Notes under the pieces: model-generated | What the model was told of the DNA's origin: nothing | Seen by the model: the letters and a program-made list of their open reading frames with translations, nothing else | Databases searched by the model: none | Position numbers and translations under genes: made by a program | Source of the DNA: an uncultured Candidatus Rokubacteria bacterium | GTDB lineage: Bacteria > Methylomirabilota > Methylomirabilia > Rokubacteriales > CSP1-6 | NCBI GenBank assembly: GCA_963789955.1 | Contig: CAWBMV010000022.1 | Span: forward strand, 160,001 to 224,000 | Direction: 5' to 3' | Length of the DNA: 64,000 nt | Shown here: in pieces, positions 5,675 to 41,812 of the stretch | How the letters are laid out: each line of letters starts with the position of its first letter | How positions within the stretch are numbered: position 1 is the first letter of the stretch

Positions 5675-5751
5675 GCCACCTTCCGAAGAAGCAGGCTCGA
5701 TTCGCGAGAAACAGGCTCGATTCGAGGCGAATCTTGCTCTCGAAGCTCGCG

Positions 5752-11383: not shown

Positions 11384-11441
11384 CGCCTAATGTTCTCCCC
11401 GGTGGAATCTGCTGAATCAAATCTGAGAAGGAGGCGGCATC

Positions 11442-22165: not shown

Positions 22166-22257
22166 GGCAATCTCCTTTTGATCCGAACTCTCTGCCCTGG
22201 ATGATATCAGGTCACGGACGAGCGGAGGGCGGCAGCCTTGTAGCATACTTGGCGGCC

Positions 22258-23438
22258 ATGAAAGTCTTCGTCTTCGATCTTCTGCCGTACGCCGAGCATC
22301 TGGATCACCTGAAGGACGGCAAGGAGCTTCCGTGGCCGTTGCCGCGACGCCATTTCAAGCCCGAGGTCGCCGCGCGGACCTATGCCGAGCACCTCGACGC
22401 CTGGGAGGCCATGGACCGCCTCGGCTACGACGGGGTGGGATTCAACGAGCATCACACCTCGCCGTACGGCCTGATGAACTCGCCGAACTTATTGGCCGCG
22501 GCGGCCGCTCAGCGTACCCAGCGGCTCAAGCTCCTCGTGTACGGCAATCTGCTGCCGCTCCACGATCCGCTCCGGCTCGCCGAGGAGCTGGCGATGCTCG
22601 ACTGCATGTCGAACGGGCGCATCGTTTCCGGATTCGCCCGCGGCATTCCGCGCGAGCACAACGTCTACAACGTCTCGCTGGCCGACTCGCGCGCCCGCTT
22701 CGAAGAGGCCTGGGAGATCATCCGCCGCGCGTGGACGGAAGAGGTCTTCTCGTACGAGGGCCGTTTCTGGTCGTATCGCGACGTCGCCATCTGGCCGCGG
22801 CCCGTGCAGACGCCGCATCCGCCCGTGTGGGTGCCGGTCACCGGCAGCAAGGAGACGATCGAGTGGGCGGGACGCCACGACATTCCCATCACGCCCGGGC
22901 CTGGCGCCGATCCGCGGATTGCGTGAGGACATCATCCGCTACTACGAGCGCTGCCTCGCCCGAGCACGGTCATCGGCTCACGCCGGATCACCTGATCATC
23001 CAGGCGACCGCGTACGTGGCGGACAGCAAGGCCCAGGCGGTGCGGGAAGCCGGACCCTACGTGCTCTACTTCAACCGGACGCTCTTCAGCCACGGCAACA
23101 TCACGGAGTCCTCGCTCCAGCGCGACGCCGGCTATTTGAGCTCGGGGTCGTTCGACTACGTGAGACCCGAGAACATGCATGCCGTGTCGGGCTCGCGCGA
23201 GCGCTATCGCGACATGACGATGGCCGACGTCGAGCGCGAGGCCGAGCAGTGGCCCTGGGGCACCGCGGACGAGGTCATCGAGAAGATCATCGCGGCCGCC
23301 GACCACGCCGGGGCCTCGACCGTGCTGGTCAACATGAACCGCGGCGCCATGCCGCAGGAGATGTTCCTCGAGCAGGTGCACCGGTTCGGCAGCAAGGTGC
23401 TCCCCGCGCTGAGGTCCCATACCGTCACGGCTCGATGA
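22258..23438 (+). CDS. LLM-class flavin-dependent oxidoreductase; frameshifts at about 22900-22960
   Basis: GFNEHH, PLRLAEELAMLD, GFARG, IWPRPVQTPHPPVW. Confidence 0.9.
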
Positions 23439-24292
23439 TCGATCGCCGCGTCGCAGTGATCCTGGCGACGGTCGCCCTGATCCTCTGGCCGCGAGGCGTT
23501 CCGGCCGCCGAACCGACTCCCGAGCTCGTCGCCCGGGGGAAATATGTGTTCGGCGCCGCCGGCGGCTGCGCGTGCCACACGACCCCTGACGGAGCCGGCC
23601 TGAATGCCGGCGGCACGAAGTTCGACCTGTCCTTCTTCGGCGTCGTCTACACGCCGAACATCACGCCGGACGCCGAGACCGGGATCGGGAAGTGGACCGA
23701 CGCGCAGGTGATCAACGCCATTCGCCGCGGCGAGCGCCCGGACGGCGCGAAGCTGTTTCCGATCCATCCGTACAAGTACTTCAGCAACATCGCCGACGAC
23801 GAGATCGAAGCGCTGGTCGCCTATCTGAGATCCGTGAAGGCGATCACATCATCGGTGCCGGCACGATCTCTGAAGATTCCGGTTCCCACGAGAACGATCG
23901 TTCCCGCGGTGAAGATCGCGCCGCGAGACGGGCGGGCGCGTGGCGCGTATCTCGCGGGTGGGGCGGGGCACTGCGCCGAGTGCCACACGCCCAGGCGATT
24001 CGACGCGTCCACGGACGACACGAAATTCCTCGCGGGCGGGCCGGGACCGGAGCGAAGCCTGGCGGCCAACATCACGCCGCACAACGAGACCGGGATCGGC
24101 CGCTGGACCGAGGCTCAGATCGCGCGGTTCCTGCGAACCGGCGTGAAGCCCTCGGGGCAGGAAGCGTCCTCGCTGATGCGGACCGTCATCGTCGGCACGT
24201 CGGCCGGATTCAGGGACCTCACGGAGGCGGACGCCCTCGCGATCGCCCGGTACCTCAAGACCGTGCCGCCGATCGAGAACAAGGTCCGCTAG
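23435..24292 (+). CDS. Di-heme cytochrome c (gluconate/alcohol dehydrogenase cytochrome subunit-like)
   Basis: Signal peptide; ARGKYV..GCACHT, PNITPD.ETGIGKW, RGAYL..HCAECHTPR. Confidence 0.85.
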   Translation: MIDRRVAVILATVALILWPRGVPAAEPTPELVARGKYVFGAAGGCACHTTPDGAGLNAGGTKFDLSFFGVVYTPNITPDAETGIGKWTDAQVINAIRRGERPDGAKLFPIHPYKYFSNIADDEIEALVAYLRSVKAITSSVPARSLKIPVPTRTIVPAVKIAPRDGRARGAYLAGGAGHCAECHTPRRFDASTDDTKFLAGGPGPERSLAANITPHNETGIGRWTEAQIARFLRTGVKPSGQEASSLMRTVIVGTSAGFRDLTEADALAIARYLKTVPPIENKVR

Positions 24293-24298
24293 AGCCGG

Positions 24299-25496
24299 CT
24301 ACTCGTCGCGGGCGCCCGACGTTCTCTGCTTGAACTCCGCGGGGACGTCACGGCCCGCATCGGTGAACGCGCGGCGGATCGCCTCGACGTTCGGGCTGAA
24401 GATCGTCTTGCGGTTGTCGCGCGCCCACTCGTTCGAGCCGCGCGTCGTCTCGAGCGAGCCCTGGAAGCGCGGCATCACGTAACGGGCGAAGAGCTCGTAC
24501 GAGCGCAGGGTCTGCTCGCGCGTCGCCCACTCGTGGGCGCGGAAGAGCAGGCCGCCGAAGCCGCCGCCGCTCTGCTCGCTGCAGGTGCTCGATGCCCGCG
24601 CACGACCGTCTCGACCGAGCCGACCAGCGTGGTGCCCATCTTCACGCCCTCGGTCAGCGGATCGTCGGAGCGGCCCGGCGGCCGGCCGAGCGTTTCCTCG
24701 AAGTAGGTGACGGTCTCGTGGCGCTCGGCGTCGCTTCACCTGCCGCAGCGCTTCTTCGTCGTCCTCGGCCACGTGCACGTTGACGACGAGCCGCCATTCC
24801 TTCCGGTCCATCGTCTTGCCGTGCTTGGCGGCCGTCTCCTCGCCGAGCTTCCACTGATTCGCCAGCGCTTCGGGCCCACCCGGAAGTCCCGCGCCGAGCG
24901 AGAGCACGCCGAGGCCGTGACGGCCCGCGGCGATCACGCCGGCCGGCGTCATGACGCTCGCCACTGCGATCGGGAAGTGCGGCGCGGTATACGGCGCCAG
25001 GTGCAAACGCGCCTGCCGCAGCTCGAACCAGTCGGTCTTCATCGTCACCGGCTCCTCGCAGCGGAGGAGCTGCATGATCGCGTCGAGCGATTCGTCCATC
25101 CGTCGGACGCTGGGTCACCGGCTCGATGCCGAGCATGTACGCATCGGAAACGAGCGCGCCCGGGCCGCAGCCGAGCATCGAGCGGCCGCGCGTCATGTGA
25201 TCGAGCTGGACGAAGCGCTGCGCCACCAGCAGGGGGTGGTGGTAGGGCAGGCTCGTCACGCCCGAGCCGAGCATGATGTGACGCGTGCGCTCGGCGGCGG
25301 CGGCGATGAAGAGCTCGGGCGAGGCGATCAGCTCCCAGCCGGCGGAATGGTGCTCGCCGACCCACACCTCGTCGTAGCCGAGGTAATCCAGCCACTCGAT
25401 CAGCTCCATGTCGCGTCCGAGGGCCAGGGTGGGGTTCTCGCCGATCCGATGGAACGGGGCCAGGAAGATTCCGAAGCGCATTCCTTTGTGGGCCAT
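24299..25496 (-). CDS. LLM-class monooxygenase (limonene 1,2-monooxygenase-like); several frameshifts
   Basis: MRFGIFLAPFH.GENPT, WVGEHHSAGWE, SLPYHHP, GPGALVSDA, SYELFARYVMPRFQG. Confidence 0.85.
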
Positions 25497-25563
25497 GGTG
25501 AGGATCCTAGCACGGGGCCCGCTGAATCGCGCGCGAGGCCGCGCGGTGCTACCATGCCGCCCC

Positions 25564-26608
25564 ATGACAGATCGAACGATCCGCGTGGGGTTCGTGGGCG
25601 CCGGCGCCAATTCGCGCAAGCATCACATTCCAAAGCTCAAGGCTCAGCCGGGAGTCGAGCTGGCCGCGGTGGCGAACCGGTCGAAGGAATCCGGCGATCG
25701 GATCGCGCGCGAGTTCGGGATCGCGCGGGTCTATGCCGACTGGCGCGAGCTGGTGCGTGCCCCGGACATCGACGCGGTGTGTATCGGTACGTGGCCGAAC
25801 ACGCACAGCGAGATCACGCGCGCGGTGCTCGAGCACGGCAAGCACGTGCTCTGCGAGGCGCGCATGGCGATGAACGCCGCCGAGGCGCGCACCATGCTCG
25901 ACGCCGCGCGCCGAGCGCCGCAGCTCGTGACGCAGCTCGTGCCGGCGCCGAACACGCTCGAGGTCGATTCGACCCTGCAGGCGTTGCTGGCCGAGGGCTA
26001 CGTCGGCGACGTCCTGGCCGTCGAGATCCAGGCCAATCAGGGCCAGTTCGTCGACGCCGAGGCGCCGCTCCACTGGCGGCAGGATGCCGCCCTCAGCGGC
26101 CTCAACGTCATGACGATGGGCATCTGGTACGAGGCGCTGATGCGCTGGCTCGGTCCGGCGCGCCGTGTGATGGCGCTCACCAAGATCGCGGTGCCCCGGC
26201 GCAAGGACGCGGCGGGCGCCTGGCAGGACGTGCGCGTGCCCGATCACGTCGAGATTCTCGCGACTCTGGGGCGTGGTGCATCGGCGCACATGCGCTTCAG
26301 CACGGTCACGGCGCTGGCGCCGCCCAGCGAGGTGTGGATCTTCGGGACGGAGGGCACGCTCCGGGTCGAGTCCGACGCCAGGCGCGTCTCCGGCGGACGG
26401 CGCGGCGACAAGGCCCTGCGCGAGATCCCGATCCCCGCGCGAGCGCCGCATCGGCTGGCGCGTCGAGGAAGAGTTCGTCAACGCGATCCGCGGCCGCGAG
26501 AAGGTCACGCGCACGACCTTCGAGGACGGCGTGCGCTACATGGAGTTCACCGAGGCCGTCTGGAAGAGTGCCCAGAGCGGTCAGGCGGCCGACGTCGCCG
26601 AGCTGTGA
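25564..26608 (+). CDS. Gfo/Idh/MocA oxidoreductase; frameshift near 26440
   Basis: IRVGFVGAG, DAVCIGTWP..H, GKHVLCEARMA, TFEDGVRYMEF. Confidence 0.9.
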
Positions 26609-26615
26609 CGAGCGT

Positions 26616-26798
26616 CTAGCGCTCCTTCGTCAGCACGCGAACCACCACGATCACGACGGCGCCCACCAGGAGCGCCAGCCCGGCGAAGAGGAGCGCGGCC
26701 GTCAGCGGGCTCATCGGCGCGTCCCGCAGCGGGCCGCCGTGATCGGCCGCCGCCGGCGCCGCGGCGACGAGGCTCGCGAGCGCCGCGAAACGACGCAT
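26616..26798 (-). CDS. Small membrane protein
   Basis: Signal-like N-terminus, DHGG, one TM helix. Confidence 0.5.
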   Translation of the reverse strand: MRRFAALASLVAAAPAAADHGGPLRDAPMSPLTAALLFAGLALLVGAVVIVVVRVLTKER

Positions 26799-26806
26799 CG
26801 AGGCGA

Positions 26807-27277
26807 TCACCCGCCGGTCTTCGCCGCCGCCTGAAGCTCTCGCACGTGCTCGGCCCAGTGGCGCGCGAGTACCTCGAGCCGCTGCCGTCCCGTGATCGTC
26901 TCGCCGTTCGCGCGCCGGAAGCACGGCTTGTCGAGGTGCGTCGAGCTCCGCGCGGCCTGCACGAGCCGCGCGTGCGCCTGCCGGAGCTGGGTCAGGAGCT
27001 CGTCGAAGCTCTCGTGCGCGTGGAGCCGGCGGCACACCTCGTTGATCGTGTCGGCATCGCCCGGCAGCGGCCAGGGCGGCCCGCCGAGCGCGGCCGCCTG
27101 GATCCCCCAGGCGGTCGCATCGTGGAAGTAGAGGAAGTGCATCAACACGTCGCGCGCCTGCCAGCGATCGACCCTCGCGCTGGTCGTCCGGCCGGCGCCG
27201 TCGAAGTACCCCAGGGTTTCCTTGACGACGCGATCGAGCTCGCTCAGGAGCGCTTCGTTCGAGGGCGACGTGCTCAT
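26807..27277 (-). CDS. DinB-like hypothetical protein
   Basis: WQARDVLMH ... HWAEHVREL. Confidence 0.6.
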   Translation of the reverse strand: MSTSPSNEALLSELDRVVKETLGYFDGAGRTTSARVDRWQARDVLMHFLYFHDATAWGIQAAALGGPPWPLPGDADTINEVCRRLHAHESFDELLTQLRQAHARLVQAARSSTHLDKPCFRRANGETITGRQRLEVLARHWAEHVRELQAAAKTGG

Positions 27278-27290
27278 CCCGTGACTCCCT

Positions 27291-28841
27291 TCAGCGGGGT
27301 TTCTTCTTGAGGAAGAGATTGATGTCGTCCGGCGTGATCAGGTCGGGTGCGGTCCAGCCGTCGAGGTCGTACTCGGCCATGCATTGCTCGGCGAATCCTC
27401 TGAACTGCGCCGCCCGGCCGCTGTCATGCGCCATCTGCCACGCGATCAGCCGAACGGTCTCCGGCGCGCCCGCATAGTTCCGCTCGTACAGCTCGTGCCG
27501 GCTGCCGAACTCGGTGCCGATGGCGTCCCACAAGAGCTTCATCAGCTTGATCCGGTCCACCGCGTCGGTGCCGTCGGAGCCGCGCAGGTACTTCTCGAGC
27601 AACGGACGCAGCGCCGGCGACTTGAAGTCGACCGCGTGCGAGTTGAGATAGATCAGCCCGCTGGCCAGGATGCTCTCGGTCAGCTCCTTGATCCGCGGAT
27701 AGGCGACCGGCGCGAAGACCCGGTAGGCCTGCGCGGACTCTGGATTCGGCAGCACCGTCGCGCCCGACCACGGCACCGGGTTGCGCGTCATCGCGTCGGT
27801 GAGCCCCCAGAACAGGTTGCGCCAGGCGATCACCTCGCCGACCGTCGCCTGCACGTTCTTCGTGTCGGTCGAGCCGACGGCGTCGACCGCCTTCAGGAGC
27901 AGACCGGCGATGAAGTCGAGCTTCACGGCCAGGCGTGTGCAGCCGTGGAGCATCGCGCGCGGGAAGAACCCGGAGCCCTGGAAGAACGTGTTCGATTTCT
28001 GCACGTTCTCGTAGACGAAGACGTTCTCCCACGGGACCAGGGCGTGATCGAGGACCAGGATCGCGTCGTTCTCGTCCATCCGGCTCGAGAGCGGATAGTC
28101 GAACGGGCTGCCCATCACCTCGGCGGTCATCGTGTAGGACGGCCGGCAGATCAGCTTCACGCCCGGCGTGTTCATCGAGGCGATGAAGACCGCGGCGAAC
28201 TCCTTGGTCTTGATCGGGGTGGTCGAGGGATGCGCGATGAAGTTGGCGTGCGTCAGCGCCGAGCCGGTGGCGACGACCTTCGCGCCGCTGACGATCAGGC
28301 CGGCGTCGGTCTCCTTCTCGACGTGCACGTAGACGTCGGCCACCTGGTCCGGGGGCTTCTGCCGATCGACCGGCGGCTGGACGAGGGCGTGATTCAGGTA
28401 GAGGACGCGCTCCTGCGCCGCGCGATACCACCGGCGCGCGTTGTCCTGATACGGCGCGTAGAAGTCGGCGTTGGCGCCGAGCGTCGCCAGGAAGGCCGCC
28501 TTGTAGTCCGGCGAGCGCCCCATCCAGCCGTAGGTCAGGCGCGACCACGCGGCGATCGCGTCGCGCGCCGCGACCAGCTCGTCGGCGCTCGTCGGCGCGC
28601 GAAAGTAGCGGTGCGTGTAGCCGCCGGAGCCGGTATCGGTCGGACACGTCAAGGTGGCCTGCGACGCCGGATCGTGGAGCGCGTCGTAGAGCCGCGCCAG
28701 CATCCGCGCGGGATTGCGAAAGGCCGGGTGCGTCGTGACGTCGTCGACCCGCTCGCCGTAGATCCAGATCTCGCGGCCGTCGCGCAGGCTCTCGAGGAAC
28801 TCCTTGCCGGTGAACGGCCGTGTGGGGCCCGTGGTCATCAC
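27291..28841 (-). CDS. hpaB: 4-hydroxyphenylacetate 3-hydroxylase family oxygenase component
   Basis: [62 protein letters not shown]. Confidence 0.85.
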
Positions 28842-28848
28842 GGCTGCC

Positions 28849-29737
28849 TCAGGCGGCGACGGCCGGCCGAACCTTGGTGGCGACCAGGTCGAGCAGCTCG
28901 AGCATGCGCCCGAGATCGTCGCGGCGGAAGTCGACCATCAGATGCGCGAGGCCGAGTCGCTGGTACTCGCCGAAGAGGTCGGTGACCGCCTGCGCGCCCT
29001 GCCGAACGAGATCATCGCTGAGGGCGAGCCGCAGCGAGGTCGTCAGTGATTTCCACGGGCGCCCGGCGGCGTCGGCGGCGGCCCGCAGGCGCGCGATGCG
29101 GTCGCGCATCTCCGCGGGGGTCTTGCCCGACGCGTGCCATCCGTCGCCGAGCGTGACGACGCGGCGAAAGGCGCCGGCGCTGTCGCCGCCGACCCAGATG
29201 GGCGGATGCGGCTTCTGGACCGGCTTGGGGGCGAAGCCGATGTCGCTGAAGCGGTAGAACTCCCCGTCGAAGGCCGGCCGATCCGACGTCCACAGCTCCT
29301 TGAAGACGCGCAGCATCTCGTCCGCTTGCTGGCCGCGCACGATGGAACGGCGCGCCGAGGATCTCGAGCTCCTGCTTCCACCAGCCCACGCCGACACCGC
29401 AGATCAGCCGTCCGTTCGAGAGCGTGTCGATCGTGGTCAGCATCTTGGCCATGAGGACGGGGTGGCGATGACCGAGCACGAAGACCGAGGCGCCGAGACG
29501 CGCCTTGGTCGTGCACATCGCCGCCGCCGCGAGTAAGGTGACGGGCTCGAGATACGGCTTTTCGGGCGGATGGGGGAATCGGCCGCCCGGATAGCCGGAT
29601 GACGTATAGGGAAAGACGACGTGATCGCTGACCCAGAGAGAGGCCATCCCGAGCCCTTCGGCCTGACGGGCGAACGTCACGAGCGCGTCGCGGGTGGCGA
29701 CGGGGCCTTGCATGGGAAGCTGGCAGCCGATGTCCAT
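28849..29737 (-). CDS. LLM-class (probably F420-dependent, Rv2161c-like) oxidoreductase; frameshift near 29340
   Basis: [39 protein letters not shown]. Confidence 0.85.
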
Positions 29738-29779
29738 GGTGACTCCTTTCGACTCACGTGATCCGAGTGGCTCTCGGTG

Positions 29780-31304
29780 TCACCCCCGCCGCACGAGCTC
29801 GGCGGCCTCCACGATGGCCCTCAGCTTCGCCTCGGCGACGCTCGCGGAGCTGACCGGATTGTCGGCGAAGGTCGCGAAGCCGCAATCGGGCGTCAGCAGC
29901 ACGCGATCCGCGCCGAAGAGCTTCACGGCGCGCCGCGCGCGCTCGGCGATCTCCTCGACCGTCTCCACGCGATCGTGCTTCTGGTTGACGACGCCGACGC
30001 CGATGCGGACGTCTCGCGGCAGGTCGGCGAGCACGTCCAGCTCACCGGCGCGCGGCGTGCACAGCTCGAGAAAGAGCGTACCGACGTCGAGCGAGGACAG
30101 GAGCGAGACCAGCGGGCGGTAGTCGCCGGCCAGCGCCGCCTCCTCGTTCCGGGTCCAGTTGCCCCGGCACACGTGCAGCCCGAGCCTCGAGCGTGGCAGA
30201 CCGGCGACGACCCGATTGACGAGCCCGCGCGCGAACTCGAGCTCGCGCGCCCGCGTCGCCCTTCTCGCTGAGCGCGCCGCACATGAAGCTCCGCGTGTTC
30301 TTGGCGCCGGTGTAGACCACTTCGGCGAGCACCGGCTCGTCGAGCTGCACGAGCGCGACGCCGGCGGCGAGCAGGAAGTGGATCTCCTCGCGCAGGACCC
30401 GCACGACGTCGTCGGCCAGGTGCTCCCGTGATCGATAGAAGCGATCCGAGACGCACTCGAGCCACATCAATCGGGTGAGGAGATAGGGCCCGGGCAGCGC
30501 GATCTTCACCGGCTTGTCGGTCAGCCCGTGAACGAATGCGTGCTCGTGAGCGGCCAGCGGTCGACTCCGGCCGAGCGGGCCGAAGAGGGCGGGATGACGG
30601 ACCTCGGAGGCCGGAACGTCGAGCGAGCGCATCTCGCGCTCGAACTTCTCGGGATCGTCGACGAGCGGGAGCAGGTCCGTGAGCGGGATCAGCTGACAAT
30701 TGTCGAGCCGCCCGCCCACGAAGCTCGCGTAGTTGTCGCGCCGCTGCTCGCCGTCCGAGATGACGTCGGCGCCCGACCGGAGCTGCGCGTCGACCGCGAG
30801 GCGGACCGCGTCGTCGGCGGTCGCCTGGAACTCCGCCTCGCCGAGCCGGCCTTCGAGGTGCTCGTGGATCGCCTGGAGCATCCAGCGCGGGCGCGGCCAG
30901 CTCCCGATGCCCATCACGGACAGCGGGCGGATGGCGGACGCCGCGGCCGGCGCCGGAAGCGTGGCCGGGACGGTGACGGCGACCGCCTGGCGCGTCACGG
31001 GCGCCAGCGCCGCCGCGCTCGCGCGCCGTGAGGGCTTACGCTCGGCCAGCGTGCCCTTGCAGACGAGAAAGCTTCGCTCCTTGCCCCGCCGGACGAACGA
31101 CACGAGCTCGTTGCCGGTCATCCGGCACCAGGCGGGGAAGTCCTCTTCGACCGAAATCTCGGTGGAACGAAACTCGAGGAGCTGGCCGCGCTCCAGCGGG
31201 TCCATGTGCTGGCGGATCAGGAGAAGGAGCCCGTTGCCGCAGTCCAGATCTCCGCCGTCGAAGCTCAGGTCGGCTTCGTGCTGGTGACGGTCAACGGGCT
31301 CCAT
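29780..31304 (-). CDS. Fusion of a TusA/SirA-like domain to a cobalamin-independent methionine synthase (MetE C-terminal-like) domain; frameshift near 30250
   Basis: N-terminal DGGDLDCG...PAWCRMTG; GSWPRP, SDGEQRR, QLDEP, Zn ligands HVCRGN, ELCTP, PDCGF. Confidence 0.85.
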
Positions 31305-31313
31305 CGCCGAGGC

Positions 31314-31676
31314 TTAGTAGCTGACGCAGGGGCTGCCCTCGGACAGGAACTCCACGAGCTTCGCGCCGCCGACGATCGCGGCACCGGCCACCAGGTTGTT
31401 CTCGTCGAGCTTGCGCTTCTTGAAGCACGGCGAGCAGACGTAGATCGTGCCGCCGGCCTTCGCGAAGTTGTCCATCAGCTCGCGCAGCGGCGCGAACCCC
31501 TCCTCGCGGATGTCGTCGGCGTAGCCCTTCTGGGCGAGGCGCACGCCCTCGACGCTCAGGAACACCAGGGTCTCCTTGCCCGAGCCGACCGCGGCGTTGG
31601 CGACCACGAAGCCCACCGTGGCCTTGTCCTGGTTGTCCTTCGCGTGGGTGAGGCTGACACAGAATCGGTTGGCCAT
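31314..31676 (-). CDS. DsrE/DsrF-like protein
   Basis: KATVGFVVANAA, VFLSVEGVRL, IYVCSPCFKKR. Confidence 0.85.
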   Translation of the reverse strand: MANRFCVSLTHAKDNQDKATVGFVVANAAVGSGKETLVFLSVEGVRLAQKGYADDIREEGFAPLRELMDNFAKAGGTIYVCSPCFKKRKLDENNLVAGAAIVGGAKLVEFLSEGSPCVSY

Positions 31677-31679
31677 GAC

Positions 31680-31925
31680 TCAGTTCTCCTTTCGACGGAT
31701 CTGGTACACGGGATGCTGCTCTGCGATCAACGTGTGGCCGGTCATGCGGCACCAGGCCGGAATATCGGCCCGCGCGCCGGGGTCGCGCGCGGTGAGCTGC
31801 AGGAGCTGCCCCGGTTTCATTGCCTCCATGCGCAGGCGAAGCTCGAGCACGAGATCGCCGCAGCCGAGATCGCCCGCATCCCACTGGGTGTCGGCGGCTC
31901 GCGGAGCCGGCGTACTGGAGGTCAT
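31680..31925 (-). CDS. TusA/SirA-family sulfur carrier
   Basis: WDAGDLGCGDL...DPGARADIPAWCRMTGH. Confidence 0.85.
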   Translation of the reverse strand: MTSSTPAPRAADTQWDAGDLGCGDLVLELRLRMEAMKPGQLLQLTARDPGARADIPAWCRMTGHTLIAEQHPVYQIRRKEN

Positions 31926-32725
31926 GGGTCGCTGCGCTCCCCGTTGCGCTCGTAGATCTGCTCGATCCTTCGTGTGTCCAGGCGCGAGGCCGGCGTGTCC
32001 TCGACGATCCGTCCGTCGCGCAGCGCCACGATGCGATCAGCATACGCCCGTGCGAGGTGCACCTGGTGGAGGCTCGCGACGACTGCCACGCCCGTCGACA
32101 CGGCCGAGCGCAGCGACTCGAGCACCGTCGCCGAGGATTCCGGATCGAGGCTCGCCACCGGCTCGTCGGCCAGGATCACCTTCGCGCGCTGCGCGAGCGC
32201 CCGGGCGATCGCGACGCGCTGCTGCTGGCCGCCCGACAGCTCGTCCGCGCGTGTCCCGGCGCGATCGACGAGGCCGACGGTGTCCAGGCAGCCGAGCGCG
32301 AGCTGCCGGTCGGCGCGTGTGAATCGGTCGCAGGATCACCCGCCACGTCGGCACGTGGGCCAGCCGCCCGACCAGCACGTTTTCGAGTGCGGACAGCCGG
32401 CGGATGAGGTTGAACTGCTGGAAGATCAGCGCGACCTCGCGGCGCGCGAGCTGGAGCTCGCGCGGGCTATGCCAGATGTCGCGCCCGGCGACGGTCACCG
32501 TGCCGCGGTCGGGCCGCGTGAGCCCGGTGAGGCACCGGAACAGCGTGGTCTTGCCGGCACCGCTCGGACCGAGCACGGCCACGAACTCGCCGGGCCGCAC
32601 GGAGAACGAAACGTCGGCGAGGGCGGTGACCGCCGGGGGGATATCGCTTGGTCAGCCCCTCGGCGTGCGCGACCAGGCCGTTGCCGTTGGGCGCTTGAGG
32701 CTATTCGAGCTTCCGTCGCAGCCAT
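31922..32725 (-). CDS. phnC: PhnC-like ABC transporter ATPase; frameshifts
   Basis: GPSGAGKTT, FQQFNLIRRLSALENVL.GRL, LSGGQQQR, LADEPVASLDP, SLHQV. Confidence 0.85.
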
Positions 32726-33516
32726 TCGCTCGTGTGGTCGATGACGGTGACCGTCACCAGGATCAGGAGGATGATCGTCAGCAAGCGCGGGAACAGCAAG
32801 AGATCCATCGAGTTCTTGAGCTCCTGGCCGATGCCGCCCGCGCCCACCACGCCGAGGACCGTCGAGGCGCGGACGTTGAACTCCCACCAGAAGAGCCCGA
32901 CCGACACCATGCTCGGCGCCACGTCCGGCAACAGCGCGTACGCGATCACCTTCACGCGCGAGGCGCCCGTCGCCGCCGCGGCCTCGAGCGGGCCCGGCGG
33001 AATGTTCTCGATCGCCTCCGCCCACAGCTTGGCCGTGCTCCCCCAGGTGTGCAGCGCGATACCGAGCACACCCGCGAACGGTCCCAGACCGACCGCCGCG
33101 ACGAAGAGCAGCGCGAAGACGAACGAGTCGACGCCGCGGAGCGCGTTGAGGAACCAGCGGGCCGGGTAGTAGAGCGCCATGCTCGGCGTCACGTTGCGGG
33201 CCGCCACGACACAGAGCGGAAGCGCGAGCAGCGCTGCCGCCGTCGTGCCGATCGCCGCCATCGCGATCGTCTCGGCGGTGCGGAGCAGCAGCACCGGAAG
33301 CTCGTCGGTGGCGGGCGGCCACGCCTTCGCCGCCCAGCCCGCCATCTTCGGCAGGCCGCTGAGCAGCCGACCCGGGTCGACCTTCGCCAGCTGCCAGCTC
33401 GCGGAATAAAACGCGGCGAGCAGCACGAGCACGAGCACGAAGCGAAGCCGCCGCGCCGACCACCACGACGCGACCGGGTCTGGATACTCGACGGCCCGCT
33501 TCACCGCCGTCGCCAT
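32701..33516 (-). CDS. phnE: PhnE-like ABC permease
   Basis: ETIAMA, GLGPFAGVLGIALH, EFNVRASTVLGVVGAGGIG. Confidence 0.9.
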   Translation of the reverse strand: MATAVKRAVEYPDPVASWWSARRLRFVLVLVLLAAFYSASWQLAKVDPGRLLSGLPKMAGWAAKAWPPATDELPVLLLRTAETIAMAAIGTTAAALLALPLCVVAARNVTPSMALYYPARWFLNALRGVDSFVFALLFVAAVGLGPFAGVLGIALHTWGSTAKLWAEAIENIPPGPLEAAAATGASRVKVIAYALLPDVAPSMVSVGLFWWEFNVRASTVLGVVGAGGIGQELKNSMDLLLFPRLLTIILLILVTVTVIDHTSEWLRRKLE

Positions 33517-34392
33517 CTATTTTTTCTTGAGACGACCGACCAGGATCCCCGCGTCCTCGATCATGCGATAGCTGTCGTGGGTCGCTGCGACGAAGCCGGT
33601 GTAGTGGTTCGGCAGGATCGTCTTCGCCTGCGCGTCGGTGATGCCGACGAGGATCTTCTGGATCCGGCCGGCGAGCGCCCGGTCGAAGTCGCGCGGCACC
33701 GCGATGGCGTCGTTGGGCAGCGGGTCGGAAGTCCAGACGACCTCGGTCGCGTTCTTCTCCAGCTTGCCGCCCTCGATCATCGCATTGCGGTTCCGGTCGA
33801 AGTCGGTCGCGCAGTCGACCTGGCCGCTGGCGACGCCGATCTCGTTCGCGGCGTGCGTGGCGCCGTCGGAGTAGTTGAACAGCTGCTTGGGATCGACGCC
33901 CTGCCGCTTGAACCACGAGGTCGGGATGAGCCAGCCCGAGGTCGAGCCCACGTCGGCGAACGACACGCGCTTGCCCTTGGCGCCGTCCGGCCACTTCGTC
34001 ACGAGCCCCGGCTTGCACACGACGATCGCGTGGTAGATGGGCTTGCCGTCGTACTTGGCGGTCGCGATCGCGCGCACTCCGGAGTCGTCGTTGGCGAGGA
34101 CGTAGCCCCACGGGCCCATCCACGCGAGGTCGACCTGCTTGTTCGCGAGCGCGACCGAGATGCCGGCCCAGTCGGTCGTGGCGGTGAGATCGAAGTCCCG
34201 GCCGAGCTCCTTCGCCAGGTAGGCGAAGAACGGCTCGTAGGCCTTCTTCGTCTCCGACGGCGTCGGCTGCAGAGGGCCGACGCCGAAGCGCAGCTTGCCG
34301 CCCTGCGCGTCGGCGGTGGTCGAGAGCGCGCTCGCGCCGGTCAGCGCGAGACCGAGTATCGAGAGCCCGAGCAACGTTCGTGCGGATCGCAT
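33517..34392 (-). CDS. phnD: Phosphate/phosphite/phosphonate-binding protein, HtxB-like
   Basis: PTPSETKK, DWAGISVA, MGPWGYVLAN, STSGWLIP, DFDRNRN, LPNDAIAVP. Confidence 0.85.
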   Translation of the reverse strand: MRSARTLLGLSILGLALTGASALSTTADAQGGKLRFGVGPLQPTPSETKKAYEPFFAYLAKELGRDFDLTATTDWAGISVALANKQVDLAWMGPWGYVLANDDSGVRAIATAKYDGKPIYHAIVVCKPGLVTKWPDGAKGKRVSFADVGSTSGWLIPTSWFKRQGVDPKQLFNYSDGATHAANEIGVASGQVDCATDFDRNRNAMIEGGKLEKNATEVVWTSDPLPNDAIAVPRDFDRALAGRIQKILVGITDAQAKTILPNHYTGFVAATHDSYRMIEDAGILVGRLKKK

Positions 34393-34471
34393 GGTCGTGG
34401 TCTATCTCCTCTGATGTCGGTGTACTTGGCAGGGACAGCGCCGGAGGTCCCGCCGGGCGACAACAGGGAAG

Positions 34472-34512
34472 CCTATAGGTAAGCTGGCGTTTTGCAAATC
34501 GGGATTCCCGAT
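34472..34512 (-). promoter_or_regulatory. Putative sigma-70 promoter with an abutting palindromic operator
   Basis: Minus strand TTGCAA-N16-TAGGCT; perfect palindrome ATCGGGA-T-TCCCGAT at 34498-34512. Confidence 0.5.
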
Positions 34513-34564
34513 GGGTAGGGCTGGGGGTATCGCCGGGTCGCACGGGACGAACCGACGACTTCAC

Positions 34565-35674
34565 TCAGCCGCGCTTGAGCTCGGGCAGGACCTTCTCGCC
34601 GAAGAGCCGGATGTTCTTCACGGCCAGGGCGTGCGGAAGGGAGCCGAACTGGAAGAGGCCGACGAGGACGCCGACGCCGAGCTCGCGCGCCTGGGCGCGG
34701 ATCTCACGCACGACGTAGTCCGGATCACCCACGATCGACAACCCTTCCTTTTGACACAGGTCGAAGTCGAACTCGTAGAGCGGGAGGTCCTCGGCCTTCT
34801 CGATCCGCGCCGGTCGCGGTGGCGGCGACTGCCCCATCAGGGCCATCGAGCCGCGGTGATAGCTCAGGAGCTTCTGCCAGAAATAGTCGAGGTGCGGCTC
34901 GGCCTCTTCGCGGGCACGCGCGTTCGTCTCGGCGACATACACATGCCGCACCAGGTGGCAGTGCTCTGGGCCCGGCGTCCATCCGTGCTTTCGGGCCAGC
35001 TCGCGGTAGCGATCAAACACGGCGCGCGCCCGGCCGAGCGAGCGATACGCCGAGCCGGTCGGCACGCGGCGGCTCGCCGCGATCTCGAGTCCTTCGTCGC
35101 TGTCAGCCGGCAGGAGAATCGGCGGATGCGGCTGCTGGAGCGGGCGCGGCCAGATCGAGACACGGTCGTAGTCGAAGTACGTGCCGTGCCACGCGAACGG
35201 CTCGCGCTCCGTCCAGGCTTTCACCACGAGATCCCACGCCTCGGTCATGCGGGCGCGCGCGTCGGCCAGCGGGATGCTGTAGGCGAGGAACTCCTGCGGC
35301 ACGCCGCGGACGAAGCCCGAGATGACGCGGCCGCCGGACATGACGTCGAGCATCGCGACTTCCTCGGCGAGCCGAAGCGGGTGCGCGTGCAGCGCCGGCA
35401 GATTGCCGAAGATGCCGATCTTGATGCGCTTGGTCCGCTGGGTGAGCACCGCGGCGATCAGGTTCGGCGACGGCATCAGCCCATAAGGCTTCGCGTGGTG
35501 CTCGTTGATGCAGATCGCGTCGTAGCCGTGCTCTTCGTAGAGCTCCATCTGCCGGAAGTGCTCGTCGTACACCTGCCGGCCGAGCGCCGGATCGTAGAGC
35601 CGATTCGCGTCCGGGTAATAGGAGGCCTCTGCGAGATGCGGCCACGGCATCAGATCGAACGCGTAGACCTGCAT
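34565..35674 (-). CDS. LLM-class flavin-dependent oxidoreductase
   Basis: INEHH, PLRLAEEVAMLD, SIWPRPLQQPHPPI. Confidence 0.9.
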   Translation of the reverse strand: MQVYAFDLMPWPHLAEASYYPDANRLYDPALGRQVYDEHFRQMELYEEHGYDAICINEHHAKPYGLMPSPNLIAAVLTQRTKRIKIGIFGNLPALHAHPLRLAEEVAMLDVMSGGRVISGFVRGVPQEFLAYSIPLADARARMTEAWDLVVKAWTEREPFAWHGTYFDYDRVSIWPRPLQQPHPPILLPADSDEGLEIAASRRVPTGSAYRSLGRARAVFDRYRELARKHGWTPGPEHCHLVRHVYVAETNARAREEAEPHLDYFWQKLLSYHRGSMALMGQSPPPRPARIEKAEDLPLYEFDFDLCQKEGLSIVGDPDYVVREIRAQARELGVGVLVGLFQFGSLPHALAVKNIRLFGEKVLPELKRG

Positions 35675-35833
35675 CCTCAGCTCCCCGCCGGTGGATTGCG
35701 CGGGTGCGCTCCCGCGATGTGGGACACGATCGTGGAGCGTCCGGCCGCTGTCAAGGTGCTGTCCTTGAGCGCGGCGTTACCATCAGGGTGACGAACGCAG
35801 GCCGCGACTCCACTCTCACGAAGGAGGACCCCC

Positions 35834-36311
35834 ATGGCAGGCAAGGCCGAGGCGCTGGCGAAGCAGTATCGAGGCGAAGGTGCAGGAGGCGACCGGGGTG
35901 TTCGATCGCCTGAGCGATGCCGACTGGAAGAAGACGACCTCCGAGAAATGGACGGTCGGCGTCGTGGCGCACCACGTGGCCGGGGGGCACGAGGGGATCA
36001 GCGGGATCATCAAGACCGTCGCGGGCGGTCAGTCCATGCCGAACTTCACGATGGACATGCTCCACGACATGAACGCGAAACACGCCAAGGAGTTCGCGAA
36101 CGTCTCCAAGGCCGAGACGATCGCGTTGCACACGAAGAACGCCGCGGCGGCGGCCGCGGTCGTGCGCGGGCTGAGCGACGCCGATCTCGGCAAGAGCGCG
36201 ACCGTCCTCACCGGGATGCCGCCGATGAGCGTCGAGCAGATCATCCACGGCATTCTTCTCAACCACGTCGAGGAGCACCTCAAGAGCATCCGCGCCGCCG
36301 TCGGCGCCTGA
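35834..36311 (+). CDS. DinB-like protein; frameshift near 35868
   Basis: AAGGAGG RBS; WTVGVVAHH ... HVEEHLKSIR. Confidence 0.65.
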
Positions 36312-36334
36312 GGTACCGCCGGGCGCGGCTCCGG

Positions 36335-37603
36335 CTAGACCGGTAGCCGCGACCGCGCCCGGGCGTCGAGCACGAGCAGACCGAGCGCGATCAGCACGAC
36401 CGCCGCCGAGCTGAACGTCAGCGACCATCGCACGCCGATCAGCGCGCCGAGCACACCGACCGTGAGCCCGCTGCCCGCGCGCAGGCCGAGCATCGACGTG
36501 TTGAAGAGGCCGACCATGCTGCCGCGGAGATGGGCCGGAGCCACCAGCTGGATGATGGTCTGCGCCATCGACGTGAACGCGATGTTGAAGATGCCCGCCA
36601 GGATCAGCAGGGTCACCGCCGCCGGATAGTGCTGCGCGCCCGGAAAGAGGGCCATCAACCCGCCCCAGATCGCGGCGCACACGATCGCGGATCTGCCGCT
36701 GAGCCGGATGAACGTCGAGCTCTCGAGCAGCACCGCGCCGATGACCGCGCCGACCGCGTTGGCAGCGAGCAGCACGCTGTACCAGGCGCCGGCCTCGTCG
36801 GCACCGAGATGGTGCGCGTACTCCGGCATCTGGGCCTGAAACGCGTTGCCGACGAGAAACGATGTGGTCCCCCCCAGCGCGATCATCGAGAGCAGCCGCG
36901 GGTCGGATCGCGCCTCGGCCAGGAGCCGGCGGATCTCGGCGAGCCCGAAGCGGACCGAGCGTCGTCCCTCCGCCTCGCGGCGATGACCCGTGTACGGCAT
37001 GAACAGCAGATAGATCGTGAACGGGGCGTAGATCGCGATGTTGGCCAAGAGGCCGTAGCCGGGGCCGAGCAGGAGCATGAGCCCGCCGCCGACGGCCGGG
37101 CCGAGCAGGATCGCCAGGTAGCGGCTCGTGGCATTGAGCCGGATCGCGCTCGGCAGCCGCTCGGGTCCCACGATGTCGTAGACCAGGAGCTGCGAAGCCG
37201 GCAGGCCGATGACACCGGCGGCGCCGTGGATCAACAATATGACCGTGGCGTGCCAGATCTGGAGACTCCCGGTGAGGAACAGCAGGGCCCACGACAGCGA
37301 CGCGAGCGCGAACAGCCCCTGCGAGATCTGGATGAGCTTGCGGCAATCGTAGCGGTCGGCCAGGGCGCCGGCGTACACCGAGAAGAGCAAGAAGGGCACC
37401 CAGTGGCTGATGACGGCGAACCCGGCCAGCATCGGTGAATGAAAGGCCTGGAAGATGACCCAGTAGCTGATGACGTGCTCGATGTTGTCGGCGGTGGCGC
37501 TCAGGAGCACGAGCGCGAAGTAGCGGCGGTAGTCGCGGTGCTGCAGCGCCCCGAACTTCGTGCCCGGCGGGGGGCCAGGGGCGGCAAGCGGAGATCGAAT
37601 CAC
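36335..37603 (-). CDS. MFS transporter
   Basis: About 12 hydrophobic segments, GALADRYDCRKL motif A. Confidence 0.9.
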   Translation of the reverse strand: MIRSPLAAPGPPPGTKFGALQHRDYRRYFALVLLSATADNIEHVISYWVIFQAFHSPMLAGFAVISHWVPFLLFSVYAGALADRYDCRKLIQISQGLFALASLSWALLFLTGSLQIWHATVILLIHGAAGVIGLPASQLLVYDIVGPERLPSAIRLNATSRYLAILLGPAVGGGLMLLLGPGYGLLANIAIYAPFTIYLLFMPYTGHRREAEGRRSVRFGLAEIRRLLAEARSDPRLLSMIALGGTTSFLVGNAFQAQMPEYAHHLGADEAGAWYSVLLAANAVGAVIGAVLLESSTFIRLSGRSAIVCAAIWGGLMALFPGAQHYPAAVTLLILAGIFNIAFTSMAQTIIQLVAPAHLRGSMVGLFNTSMLGLRAGSGLTVGVLGALIGVRWSLTFSSAAVVLIALGLLVLDARARSRLPV

Positions 37604-37701
37604 CGTGACGATTATAATCCTTGTCGACGTGCGCGCCGCAGGGCCGTCGCGGGGCTGGGGCCCCGCCGGCCGGGGCGCAGCTGAGAGAAAGAGAGGGACC
37701 G

Positions 37702-38992
37702 ATGAAGGGCGTGACGTTGCCGACCGAGACCGTGTTCGTGATGGAGGCGTCGCCGATCAAGTTCGGACTCGGCGCCATGGACGAGATCGCGTACGACGCC
37801 CGGCGGCTCGGGCTCAAGCGCGTGCTGATCGTCACCGACCGCCACATCGGCGAGCTCGGGCTGCCCGATCGTGTTCGCGCCCTCCTCGAAGAGGAAGGCA
37901 TCAAGGCCGACGTCTACGACGGCGTCGAGATCGAGCCCACCGATCGGTCGATGGAAGAGGCCGCGGAGTACGCACGGCAGCGCGAGCTCGACGGGCTCAT
38001 CGCCGTCGGCGGCGGCAGCGCGCTGGACACGTGCAAGGCGGTCAATCTGCTCACGACGTATCCGGCGCCGCTGCTCGACTACATCAATCAGCCGGTCGGG
38101 CGCGGCCGCCCGGTGCCGGGTCCGCTCAAGCCTCTGATCGCGGTCCCGACGACGGCGGGCACCGGCAGCGAGACGACCGCGGTGGCGGTGACCCACGTCC
38201 TGGCGCAGCACGTGAAAGCCGGCGTGTCGAATCGGCTCCTGCGTCCGGCGCTCGGCATCGTCGACCCGCTCAACACGCTCACCGCGCCGCCGGAGGTGAC
38301 GGCCGCCGCGGGCTGCGACATCCTGACGCACGCGATCGAGTCGTACACGACGCGCCCGTACAACGCGCGCGCCAAGCATCATCCGCCCGATCGCCCGGCC
38401 TACATCGGCGCCAACCCGGCGAGCGACATCTGGTGTGAGAAGGCGATCGAGTACGTCGGCCGGTATTTGCGCCGCGCGGTCCTGAGCCCGCTCGACCTCG
38501 ACGCGCGCGTGAACCTGGCGCTGGCCGCCAACTACGCCGGCGTCGGCTTCGGCAACGCCGGAGTCCACATCCCGCACGCGCTCGCGTATCCCATCGCCGG
38601 CCTCGTGCGCGACTACGTGCCGAGCGGCTATCGCACCACCCATGCGCTGGTGCCGCACGGCGTCTCGGTCGTGGTGACGGCGCCGGCGACCTTTCGCTTC
38701 ACATATGCGACGTCGCCGGAGCGGCATCTGCGCGCCGCCGAGCTGATGGGCGTCTCGACCGCGGGACTCTCGGAGCGCGACGCGCGCGAGGCGCTACCGC
38801 GCGCGCTCCAGTCGCTGATGCGCGACGTCGGGATTCCCAACGGTATCAGCGCGCTCGGCTATGGCGAGGGCGACATTCCCGCGCTGGTCGAAGGCACCTT
38901 GAAGCAGCCGAGGCTCTTGAGCGGCGTCTCCGCGAGCCGTAGGCTCCGCCGAGCTCGCCGCGATTCTGCGCGACTCGCTCCGTCTCTGGTAG
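37702..38992 (+). CDS. Hydroxyacid-oxoacid transhydrogenase (Fe-ADH family, ADHFE1-like); frameshift near 38925
   Basis: GGGSALDTCKA, PTTAGTGSETT, HAIESYT, RPAYIGANP, GNAGVHIPH, PHG. Confidence 0.85.
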
Positions 38993-39000
38993 GCCACCGT

Positions 39001-39143
39001 CGGGGTCGGCGGCGGCCAGGCGGGCTGGGTCTTGTCAGCCCTGTGTAGGTACGGTTGCTGTTCGCGACGTGCGAGATTGGTCAGCAGGAGGGTCCGCGCG
39101 CAGGGCTCACGAGACCCAGCCCGCCTGGCCGCCGCCGACCCCG
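39001..39143. repeat. Long inverted repeat (46-bp arms), MITE-like element or bidirectional terminator
   Basis: 39001-39046 versus the reverse complement of 39098-39143: 42/46 identical, first 32 bp perfect. Confidence 0.85.
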
Positions 39144-39145
39144 TG

Positions 39146-40597
39146 CTACGCGTCGTGGCGGATCGGGTAGCTCGGCGGCACGATGTCGTCGAGCGGCTTC
39201 GCGGTCCAGTGCCACTGCGGAATGGCGTGCCACAGCCGTTCGCCCTCTGCTTGCACGTCGCGCAGCAGCGCGTGCTCGTCGATCACGCACGGCTCGGCCA
39301 CCCTCGACGAGCATCTGGCCGTCGACGATGACGGTGTCGACGTCGCGCCCGGCACCGCACTCGACCAGCGCCTTGATCGGATCGTGCACGGCGCCGTAGT
39401 GCAGGTGACGCAGATCGACGACGATGATGTCGGCCTTGGCCCCCGGGGCCAGCCGGCCGAGATCGTCGCGCCCGAGATGGCGCGCGCCGCCGAGCGTGGC
39501 GGCGTCGAAGACGTCCTGCGGGCTGGCCCACGCGGAAGCTGCCGTCGGCCATGCGGCACATCAAGGCGGCCCAGCGCATCTCGTGGATCAGATCTTGCGG
39601 GTACGTGTCGGTGCCGAGCGCGATGTTGATCCCGAGCGCGCGATAGCGCTCGAACGACTCGAACTGCACGCCCATCTTGGCGTACTTGTACGGCGCGTGG
39701 ACGACCGTGACGCCGCTGTCGGCCAGGAGCTTCAGGTCGTCGCGCGTAGGGGTAGTGGCACCAGGAGTGCTCGTTGTGGAATACGCAGTGGCCGAGGCCG
39801 GTGCGCGGCTTCAGGAAGCCGATCGAGTGCAGGAGCTGGATCGGCGTCTGCCCGTGCTGCTCGAGGATGTGGTGGAACTCGCGCTGGTTCATCGCGGCGT
39901 GCAGCTGTATCGGCACGCCGAGGTCGTCGGCCCACGCGCCGGGCCTGCCGCAGGAGATCCGGCGTGCACGTGTCGAGCTGGCCGGGATAGAGCATGGCCT
40001 TGATCCGGCCGTTGTACGCGCCGTCGTGCTCCTTGATGTAGGCGACCGCGCGCTCGAGCCCGGCCACGCCGGCGGCCTCATCCCACTCCCAGACGATGCG
40101 GCTGCCGTCGAAGGCGTAGCTCGCCGAGCGGAACGCCGGCCCCACGTACGCGCGCACGCCTAGCTCGCCCGCGATCTTCGTGAACGCGGCCGGGCCGCCG
40201 GGCATCGTGCCGACGTCCATGATCGTCGTGGCGCCCGCCCGCAGCGCCGACCAGAGACCGTAGGTGCCCGCCACGTCCGCGCGGTCGCCCGCTCGAGGCA
40301 CCGAGGCGCCCCGACGTGGCGCGACGTAGCCGACGAAGTTGCTCCCGAAGTAGTCGGCCTTGAGGCCGTCGAGGAACACGGCTTGCCCCGCGTTGGTGGC
40401 GGCGTGCAGGTGGCAATTGACCAGGCCGGGAGCCACGAGCTTGCCGGTGGCGTCGATACGGCGATCGACGGCCCGTCGAAGCGCGCGCCCACGTGAACGA
40501 CATGGTCGTCCTCGAATACGACGCAGCCATTCGGCCAGAGCTCGTGTCCGCGCCCGTCGTAGCCGACCACCCATCCGCCCTGAATCAGTGTTCGCAT
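39146..40597 (-). CDS. Amidohydrolase (chlorohydrolase/deaminase family); several frameshifts
   Basis: PGLVNCHLH, QLHAA, GHCVF, ALGTD, GAKADIIV, DTVIVDG. Confidence 0.85.
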
Positions 40598-40648
40598 CGT
40601 CGTGACTCTCCGGTGAAAGAAACGTTCATCGGCCGCGCGGCCAGCCGC

Positions 40649-40677
40649 ATGCTAGGCAACGCCGGTCGACGTGTCAA
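40649..40677 (-). promoter_or_regulatory. Sigma-70 promoter for the amidohydrolase
   Basis: TTGACA-N17-TAGCAT. Confidence 0.6.
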
Positions 40678-40691
40678 CGTTTCCGCCGGCG

Positions 40692-40721
40692 TTGACAGAG
40701 ACTCGGGTGCTGCACTACAGT
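40692..40721 (+). promoter_or_regulatory. Sigma-70 promoter for the ferritin-like gene (back-to-back with the previous promoter)
   Basis: TTGACA-N18-TACAGT. Confidence 0.6.
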
Positions 40722-40832
40722 CCGCTTCACTCTGATCGAAGGAGCCCTCGCGTTAGTACGCGCTCACCTCGTCATGGAGCGTGTACCCTTCTGTCCGTGG
40801 ACAGGCCGATCGCGGAAGGACCCGGCATAGGG

Positions 40833-41735: not shown

Positions 41736-41770
41736 ACGGCGCGCACACCGCGCCTCGCCGCCGATGGAGC

Positions 41771-41802
41771 GCCGCGGCCCGGCACGAAAGCAGGGCCGCG
41801 GC
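41771..41802. terminator. Hairpin between convergent genes
   Basis: GCCGCGGCCC...GGGCCGCGGC 10-bp stem. Confidence 0.55.
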
Positions 41803-41812
41803 CCGGATGCGC

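Follow-up and report, generated by a model that had tools for sequence, protein, structure and literature searches.

A 64,000-nucleotide stretch of DNA from an uncultured Candidatus Rokubacteria bacterium (assembly GCA_963789955.1, contig CAWBMV010000022.1, positions 160,001 to 224,000; hereafter the window) carries six minus-strand genes at 29780-34392, a span read from the window letters and its open reading frames (ORFs). They encode an ATP-binding cassette (ABC) importer of the PhnCDE type, the small carriers TusA and DsrE, and a fusion of a TusA domain with a single-barrel MetE-like zinc enzyme. The module formed by the last three genes probably works in selenium metabolism, and we judge the chances to be evenly balanced that the operon as a whole serves selenium acquisition and salvage. 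Selenium is favoured because selenium genes recur beside the module and because unfused orthologues of the enzyme exchange a conserved cysteine for selenocysteine (Sec). The original prediction, made from the letters of the window, had coupled an importer for reduced phosphorus to a sulfur relay and had listed selenium among several possible cargos, and it is this option that the present analysis brings to the front.

A scan for the fusion gave 233 loci, of which the best 80 were examined, and 56 of these had enough flank, defined as at least 3.6 kb upstream of the fusion. dsrE lies near the fusion in 71/80 loci and a separate tusA in 69/80, and both are present in 56/56 loci with enough flank. 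The earlier suggestion of carrier cysteines feeding a zinc enzyme is supported. Importer genes are found in 38/80 loci (all three in 31), standing before tusA in Rokubacteria and between dsrE and the fusion in Betaproteobacteria; since the pairing recurs in both groups and in two gene orders, the linkage of importer and core is far beyond chance. The neighbourhood survey proposed with the original prediction thus found the expected linkage in 29/56 loci with enough flank, and found the core without any importer in the other 27. Additionally, in a sample of 351 genomes from one family, binding proteins of at least 75% identity were present in only 6 genomes, all of them with the module, and 22 other genomes had binding proteins at 41-48% identity and no module. 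As the core recurs without the importer and close binding proteins occur only in module genomes, what stays constant is the core of three genes, to which the importer is a dedicated, optional addition. A second DsrE-like gene is found in 19/80 loci and a transglutaminase-like gene in 9/80, with the importer in none of the latter that have enough flank. Three loci (L061, L077, L080) resemble freshwater Burkholderiales, and their Bordetella and Bifidobacterium titles look inconsistent, probably reflecting mislabelled metagenome-assembled genomes (MAGs).

The catalytic residues of the module are highly conserved. TusA and DsrE proteins are sulfur carriers; here, the CG motif of TusA is invariant among 51 homologues, and DsrE, 62-100% identical across fused loci, keeps its CxxC motif (C82, C85). 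The zinc motifs noticed earlier in the window (HVC, EL, DCG) are indeed present, and both they and the four ligands within them (H377, C379, E413, C474; numbering of L001, an intact relative) are invariant in 74 intact fusion homologues. So is the amino-acid site (S135, E186, D322), assigned by motif and by alignment to 3RPD and corresponding to the three amino-acid-binding residues that the part of Price 2021 available to us names (PMC7857596). Three more cysteines, C203, C284 and C342, do not vary either. A structure model of the fusion (pLDDT 82.8) matches the MetE and MesD barrels (Foldseek E about 1e-19, 18-23% identity); in it, C342 falls within a loop of lower confidence that follows the strand ending at D322. 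Some Planctomycete loci (L018 6710-7297; L070 7005-7634; L015, L028, L041, L072) have a TusA with a cysteine-rich N-terminal extension of ~130 aa and no Pfam match. Selenocysteine in the fused loci themselves was considered and rejected, with no in-frame stop at any Cys position of TusA, DsrE or the fusion in the 80 loci and a TGC codon in the window.

The unfused relatives differ at one of these cysteines. A profile search for unfused homologues returned two clusters with 220-aa members ending just before the cysteine of the FMC motif, C342 in the fused enzyme, and a metagenome scan seeded on these clusters gave 562 loci, of which the best 80 were kept; the sample is biased towards this clade by its seed and includes near-duplicates. 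Among the 78 loci that span the site, TGA stands at the FMC-cysteine position in 73 and a Cys codon in 5; each alignment shows a single stop, beyond which the frame stays open. A SECIS-like hairpin motif follows the UGA in 70/71 loci (mean -15.3 kcal/mol, vs -8.1 for 4 Cys loci), and its cells are paired in 93% of cases, against 30-49% when the motif is slid along the sequence, with just one compensatory change. In the alignment of one Sec-form protein (L111) to the fused barrel, 41% identical and ungapped over 374 aa, U221 falls on C342. Sec-clade loci follow the order tusA-dsrE-TusA/OsmC-metE, with dsrE directly upstream in 33/38 loci of at least 5 kb, and the TusA domain of their TusA/OsmC protein is 47% identical to the fused one. 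A quick enzyme tree separates fused, Sec and unfused Cys groups and leaves the sister relation of fused and unfused forms unresolved, so that their orthology is drawn from identity and shared gene order. Protein records of a Tissierellia cluster (P0152, P0279) break at the same site. A position that alternates between Cys and Sec is the mark of a reactive nucleophile in selenoproteins.

Selenium genes recur next to both forms of the enzyme, and they do so in several phyla. Among 73 hand-picked ORFs from the 38 Sec-clade loci of at least 5 kb, NCBIfam selenium markers above cut-off (selD, YedF, selA, selB and a selenium LysR regulator) occur in 7/38 loci. Beside the fused form, above-cut-off hits include YedE immediately before tusA in L018 (TIGR04112) and a divergent selenium LysR in L008 (NF040786), with a clustered homologue in L009; selD lies beside the module in L013. 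YedE, YedF and the selenium LysR are tied to selenium use in the parts of Lin 2015 that we could consult (PMC5322559). The plasmid pFER4 of Paracoccus ferrooxidans has tusA, dsrE, two unknown genes, the fusion, selA and trxB in a row, with a cysteine desulfurase, a transglutaminase and selB nearby. In the genome G519, selD, selB and selA lie 3-8 kb upstream of the module and fwdD-fwdB-fwdA downstream, fwdB having an in-frame UGA, and the same fwd genes are present in G532. The window genome itself has, on a contig other than that of the operon (C6:163200-167300; L109 7200-11253), genes for an FmdB zinc ribbon, a selenium LysR, selD and transglutaminase-like and TlpA-like proteins, the transglutaminase homologue coming after the selenium LysR and selD. 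As separate observations, Planctomycete fwdB genes with in-frame UGA follow the module directly and co-oriented in L106 (18321-19655) and L107 (11220-12560), transglutaminase-redoxin pairs stand divergent beside it in L006 and L065, and on the Paracoccus plasmid L110 two unknown genes with no Pfam match (9853-11937, plus strand) fill the slot that the importer takes in other loci, and a split hypothetical gene (5496-6065, minus strand) reads through a UGSC motif.

At the genome level, we tested 50 module genomes picked from the 80 loci, including the unpublished genome G034, with statistics that ignore relatedness. selD is present in 45/50, and the remaining five are all selA-positive. In Planctomycetales, selD occurs in 6/6 module genomes vs 67/231 overall (p=0.0005; p=0.002 without the centre genome and p=0.006 when counted as 4 lineages). 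The importer further tracks selA, which is found in 25/26 importer-bearing module genomes vs 16/24 without importer (p=0.008, 50 genomes) and in 5/6 importer-bearing module genomes of the Burkholderiaceae sample (p=0.01). Where selA was missing, selU was present in all 9 module genomes tested.

The HtxB-like identity of the importer stated in the original prediction holds, the binding protein scoring 290 bits against HtxB and 82 against PtxB. As in the HtxBCD hypophosphite importer of Pseudomonas stutzeri, to which it is related by family, the pocket retains the W52 cap and the R178-D206 salt bridge (W75, R200 and D228 in the window protein). HtxB residues N128, F158 and M176 are replaced by Ser, His and Phe (S150 and H180 for the first two), and Ser and His occupy these two sites in every module-linked copy that spans both. 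The window protein thereby carries the features of the HtxB-like hybrid subfamily (N128S, F158H, M176Y/F, W52 retained), which Adams 2019 (PMC6629693) modelled, its ligand there being, in the sections available, a prediction of unmeasured phosphite binding. According to the portion of Bisson 2017 at hand, N128 and F158 of HtxB are what keeps out a third oxygen; with three of its positions changed relative to HtxB, the pocket would not be expected to select for hypophosphite. Such a pocket for a three-oxygen pyramidal anion would be compatible with phosphite, selenite, sulfite and arsenite, and the arsenite-binding proteins AioX and ArrX belong to the same family. The profile TIGR04553 for a putative selenate-binding protein matches at 88.8 bits, below its curated cut-off of 250. 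Judged from sequence, the chance that the importer carries a selenium oxyanion appears about even.

Importers with the hybrid pocket also occur away from the module. On a Ciceribacter plasmid (L219 7761-11584) one accompanies an htxA-like dioxygenase (46-48% to HtxA), with ptxD not adjacent, and others lie by radical SAM genes (L220 3043-10003, L206, L209-L212), L220 having an arsenosugar-type glycosyltransferase as well; an arsenic cargo is possible for this sister clade. In L178 (1714-5276) and L188 (2421-6579), a Cys-form enzyme follows genes for an Rv1679-like acyl-CoA dehydrogenase and an Rv1680-like PhnD-type binding protein (below cut-off); here the enzyme family has been paired with a PhnD-type protein a second time and independently.

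From these observations we infer the following course of events. The ABC importer would take up an Se(IV) anion that is small and pyramidal, selenite being the likeliest candidate and methylseleninate a possible one. In other lineages its place is apparently filled by YedE, or by a secreted protein of the transglutaminase-like kind that is in some cases accompanied by a porin. The selenium could then be held on TusA, DsrE and the TusA domain of the fusion and reduced there as Cys-bound selenosulfides, judging by the chemistry of the TusA, DsrE and YedF families. The MetE-like barrel, with its intact zinc and amino-acid sites, would hold an amino acid of the homocysteine or methionine type at its zinc, and the extra residue of the catalytic-face loop (Cys here, Sec in the unfused clade) may carry a selenium intermediate. 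Most likely, the enzyme would either move a methyl group from methyl-selenium onto homocysteine or demethylate selenomethionine, in both cases releasing selenide that could supply SelD for selenocysteine or selenouridine synthesis. We favour methyl transfer for this corrinoid-free module because the recycling of methyl-selenium is documented, in the parts of the sources available to us, for corrinoid-dependent relatives of the MetE-like fold (PMC10418091; PMC11097638). That specific chemistry is tentative and less likely than not. A complete corrinoid-free scavenging pathway, in which a dedicated high-affinity Se(IV) importer is joined by a MetE-fold Cys/Sec enzyme that moves a methyl group from carrier-bound methyl-selenium to homocysteine, giving methionine and selenide for SelD, is more doubtful still.

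Several points weigh against a role in selenium metabolism. The cargo of the importer and the chemistry of the enzyme are deduced from sequence, a Sec residue indicates a reactive site and not a selenium substrate, and the fused enzymes have Cys at the C342 position in 79/80 loci (one unmatched). Hairpin covariation is weak, 32/500 shuffles scoring as high as the single compensatory change, and phnD and phnE occur in none of the 80 Sec-clade loci. The genome counts carry no correction for relatedness; in the Burkholderiaceae sample, selD is found in 17/17 module genomes vs 307/351 (p=0.10), so common overall that the comparison is uninformative, and the module shows no enrichment for selA (5/17 vs 105/351, p=0.61). 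Some loci have sulfur genes next to the module (metY-metX-metW in L125; cysM and cysG in L008) and others phosphorus-related genes, and the window genome has MetH and two phnJ loci. Phosphite is the ligand predicted for this pocket in the consulted sections of Adams 2019 (PMC6629693). Further, the Ciceribacter plasmid protein beside the htxA-like dioxygenase has 14 identical pocket residues and nests within the module-linked binding proteins in a quick tree (43 rows, 19 near-duplicate rows excluded), and related pockets adjoin arsenosugar-type radical SAM genes; for these reasons the pocket alone cannot identify the cargo.

We weighed four other explanations. A sulfur route, in which the importer takes sulfite or thiosulfate, the carriers are loaded with persulfide and the zinc enzyme either produces homocysteine or methylates it, with selenium genes nearby since sulfur and selenium share carriers, is possible and in our view unlikely. 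It accords with the established role of TusA and DsrE, the intact amino-acid site and the pyramidal shape that sulfite has in common with selenite, as well as with metY-metX-metW ahead of the module in L125, with cysM, cysG and a sulfite-reductase-like gene converging on it in L008 and with the cysteine desulfurases flanking four Sec-clade loci and the Paracoccus locus. However, the neighbours that recur are selenium-specific markers (selA, selB, selD, YedE, YedF and the selenium LysR), selD or selA is present in 50/50 genomes tested, and a riboswitch search of 9 loci returned tRNAs only. Reduced phosphorus, the cargo put forward by the original prediction, would involve phosphite or hypophosphite oxidised by the thiol relay (for example as thio- or selenophosphate), or an importer that serves phosphorus enzymes elsewhere and merely travels along. 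The W52-capped pocket and the Ciceribacter neighbourhood speak for it, and so do a phosphodiesterase-family gene upstream in L016, L030 and L067, a Pit transporter in L035 and the L043 group, PhoX in L031 and the two phnJ loci of the window genome, both on contigs other than that of the operon. Yet the importer is missing from 27/56 fused loci and all 80 Sec-clade loci, it follows selA, orthologues of ptxD or htxA are absent from the 80 fused loci (best 26-37% identity) and of PtxD from 5 isolate genomes (best 37%), and a shared upstream repeat resembling a Pho box was not evident by eye, a judgement made with no statistical test. The recurring neighbours and the Cys/Sec exchange point to selenium instead, and a new route for phosphite or hypophosphite now seems improbable.

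The enzyme could also be an ordinary core methionine synthase of the folate-independent MesA-D type with an unspecified methyl donor, the name that databases give it, and it has the single MetE barrel with all zinc and homocysteine residues invariant. Its scores against the methionine-synthase profiles are nevertheless all far below cut-off (141.5 vs 406 at best, 98.9 vs 392, and 61 vs 930 for MetE), the window genome has a MetH above cut-off, the literature sections available mention for MesA-D neither an extra Cys or Sec nor obligate carrier genes, and the genes that recur around the 80 fused loci include neither a corrinoid protein nor MesX; we find this explanation scarcely credible. More than a dozen single-barrel MetE-like paralogues (24-32% identity) are spread over many contigs of the same genome and likewise stand against it. 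Detoxification or conversion of a metalloid, with selenite or arsenite captured and then methylated or sequestered and not assimilated, would fit the arsenite binders AioX and ArrX of the same family, the related binding proteins beside arsenosugar-type genes and a methyltransferase fold that could methylate selenide. A high-affinity importer suits scavenging more than defence, and no ars genes recur around the 80 fused loci, so that we give this explanation very little weight.

The layout of the operon (Table 1) confirms what was first noticed in the window, six genes on one strand with abutting or overlapping ends. phnD and phnE abut, phnE overlaps phnC by ~25 nt as deduced from L001, phnC and tusA share an ATGA at 31922-31925, and tusA is separated from dsrE by 3 nt and dsrE from the fusion by 9 nt. 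The window copy has four one-base insertions, in phnC near 32695, 32635 and 32327 and in tusA-metE near 30249, relative to L001, L002 and L003, to which it is 88-92% identical in DNA. The inserted bases are missing from contigs of independent runs (one contig at the tusA-metE site has 3 other differences in 342 nt) and flanking genes carry the same kind of breakage, so the insertions are assembly errors. A pseudogene was considered and rejected on the same comparisons with L001-L003 and the independent contigs. Intact L001 proteins stood in wherever a whole sequence was required. Throughout 22000-42000 of the window, many genes are cut by single-base frameshifts, a pattern that fits long-read assembly errors.

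Table 1. Coordinates of the operon genes and of the Cys/Sec codon in the window.
Feature	Position	Strand	Basis
phnD, PhnD-family periplasmic binding protein, HtxB-like hybrid subfamily	33517..34392	-	HtxB comparison, pocket residues
phnE, PhnE-type ABC permease	32701..33516	-	TIGR01097 above cut-off
phnC, PhnC-type ABC ATPase (start approximate)	31922..32725	-	TIGR02315 above cut-off; intact in L001
tusA, TusA-like carrier, 81 aa	31680..31925	-	Pfam; invariant CG motif
dsrE, DsrE-family protein, 120 aa	31314..31676	-	Pfam; CxxC (C82, C85)
tusA-metE, TusA domain and single-barrel MetE-like zinc enzyme	29780..31304	-	Pfam TusA and Meth_synt_2; 508 aa in L001
TGC codon of the extra invariant Cys (FMC, C342)	30279..30281	-	UGA/Sec at the same position in unfused orthologues

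The nearest relatives are Rokubacteria/Methylomirabilota MAGs. A scan of 29000-35000 of the window for promoters and terminators found none, and contigs from two RNA runs span all or nearly all bins at ~85-92% identity, these being contigs of relatives that show neither co-transcription nor expression level. Luciferase-like monooxygenase genes lie on both sides on the same (minus) strand, at 34565-35674 (172 nt upstream) and 28849-29737 (~40 nt downstream), followed by an HpaB-like gene; this adjacency is retained in close Rokubacteria relatives only and is reshuffled in L001.

Among known systems, HtxBCD differs in that the window operon lacks htxA and ptxD and pairs its importer with carrier proteins and an enzyme of the MetE kind. 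MesA-D (Price et al. 2021, PMC7857596, as far as available; MesD PDB 3RPD) and the MetE barrel have the same fold, four zinc ligands and three amino-acid-binding residues, whereas the present enzyme has a fused or adjacent TusA, an inserted loop with an invariant Cys or Sec and no MesX or corrinoid partner, and stays below the family cut-offs. The YedE-YedF system (Lin et al. 2015, PMC5322559, in the sections at hand) likewise joins a membrane transporter to domains of the TusA and DsrE kinds next to selD, and both YedE and YedF, as well as the selenium LysR, occur beside the module. In the module, unlike in YedE-YedF, TusA and DsrE are each encoded by a gene of their own, the transporter is usually an ABC system and the core includes a zinc enzyme. 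The comparison extends to YeeE-YeeD, a thiosulfate uptake system. SdmABC and the type 1 mlp clusters (PMC10418091; PMC11097638), as described in the accessible parts, pair a zinc methyltransferase of the UroD/MetE superfamily with a proposed recovery of selenium from methylated forms in Sec-using genomes; they require a corrinoid protein and an activase and are anaerobic, whereas the module is found in aerobes and has neither, no corrinoid protein or reductive activase being among the recurring neighbours of fused and Sec-clade loci. The module would act like carrier-coupled chalcogen uptake and like methyl-selenide salvage and belongs to neither.

Literature searches gave no paper on the module, in line with the original statement that no described pathway has this composition, and term searches of a 2026 review (PMC13188914), of the deep-Sep main text and of the BSepDB main text and one supplement did not turn up a selenoprotein resembling MetE in the text so covered. 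Databases cut this selenoprotein to a 220-aa fragment. The same review, in the text covered, states that no specific high-affinity prokaryotic selenium transport system has been identified, and the available part of a 2024 study (PMC11097638) agrees. The operon may include a long-sought dedicated selenium importer, and it supplies a soluble binding protein that is directly testable, in culturable hosts. Phosphite biocontainment has been proposed with HtxB-like proteins, and the true ligand of these proteins matters there as well. Further, the labels 'methionine synthase' and 'phosphonate transporter' may be wrong for thousands of proteins.

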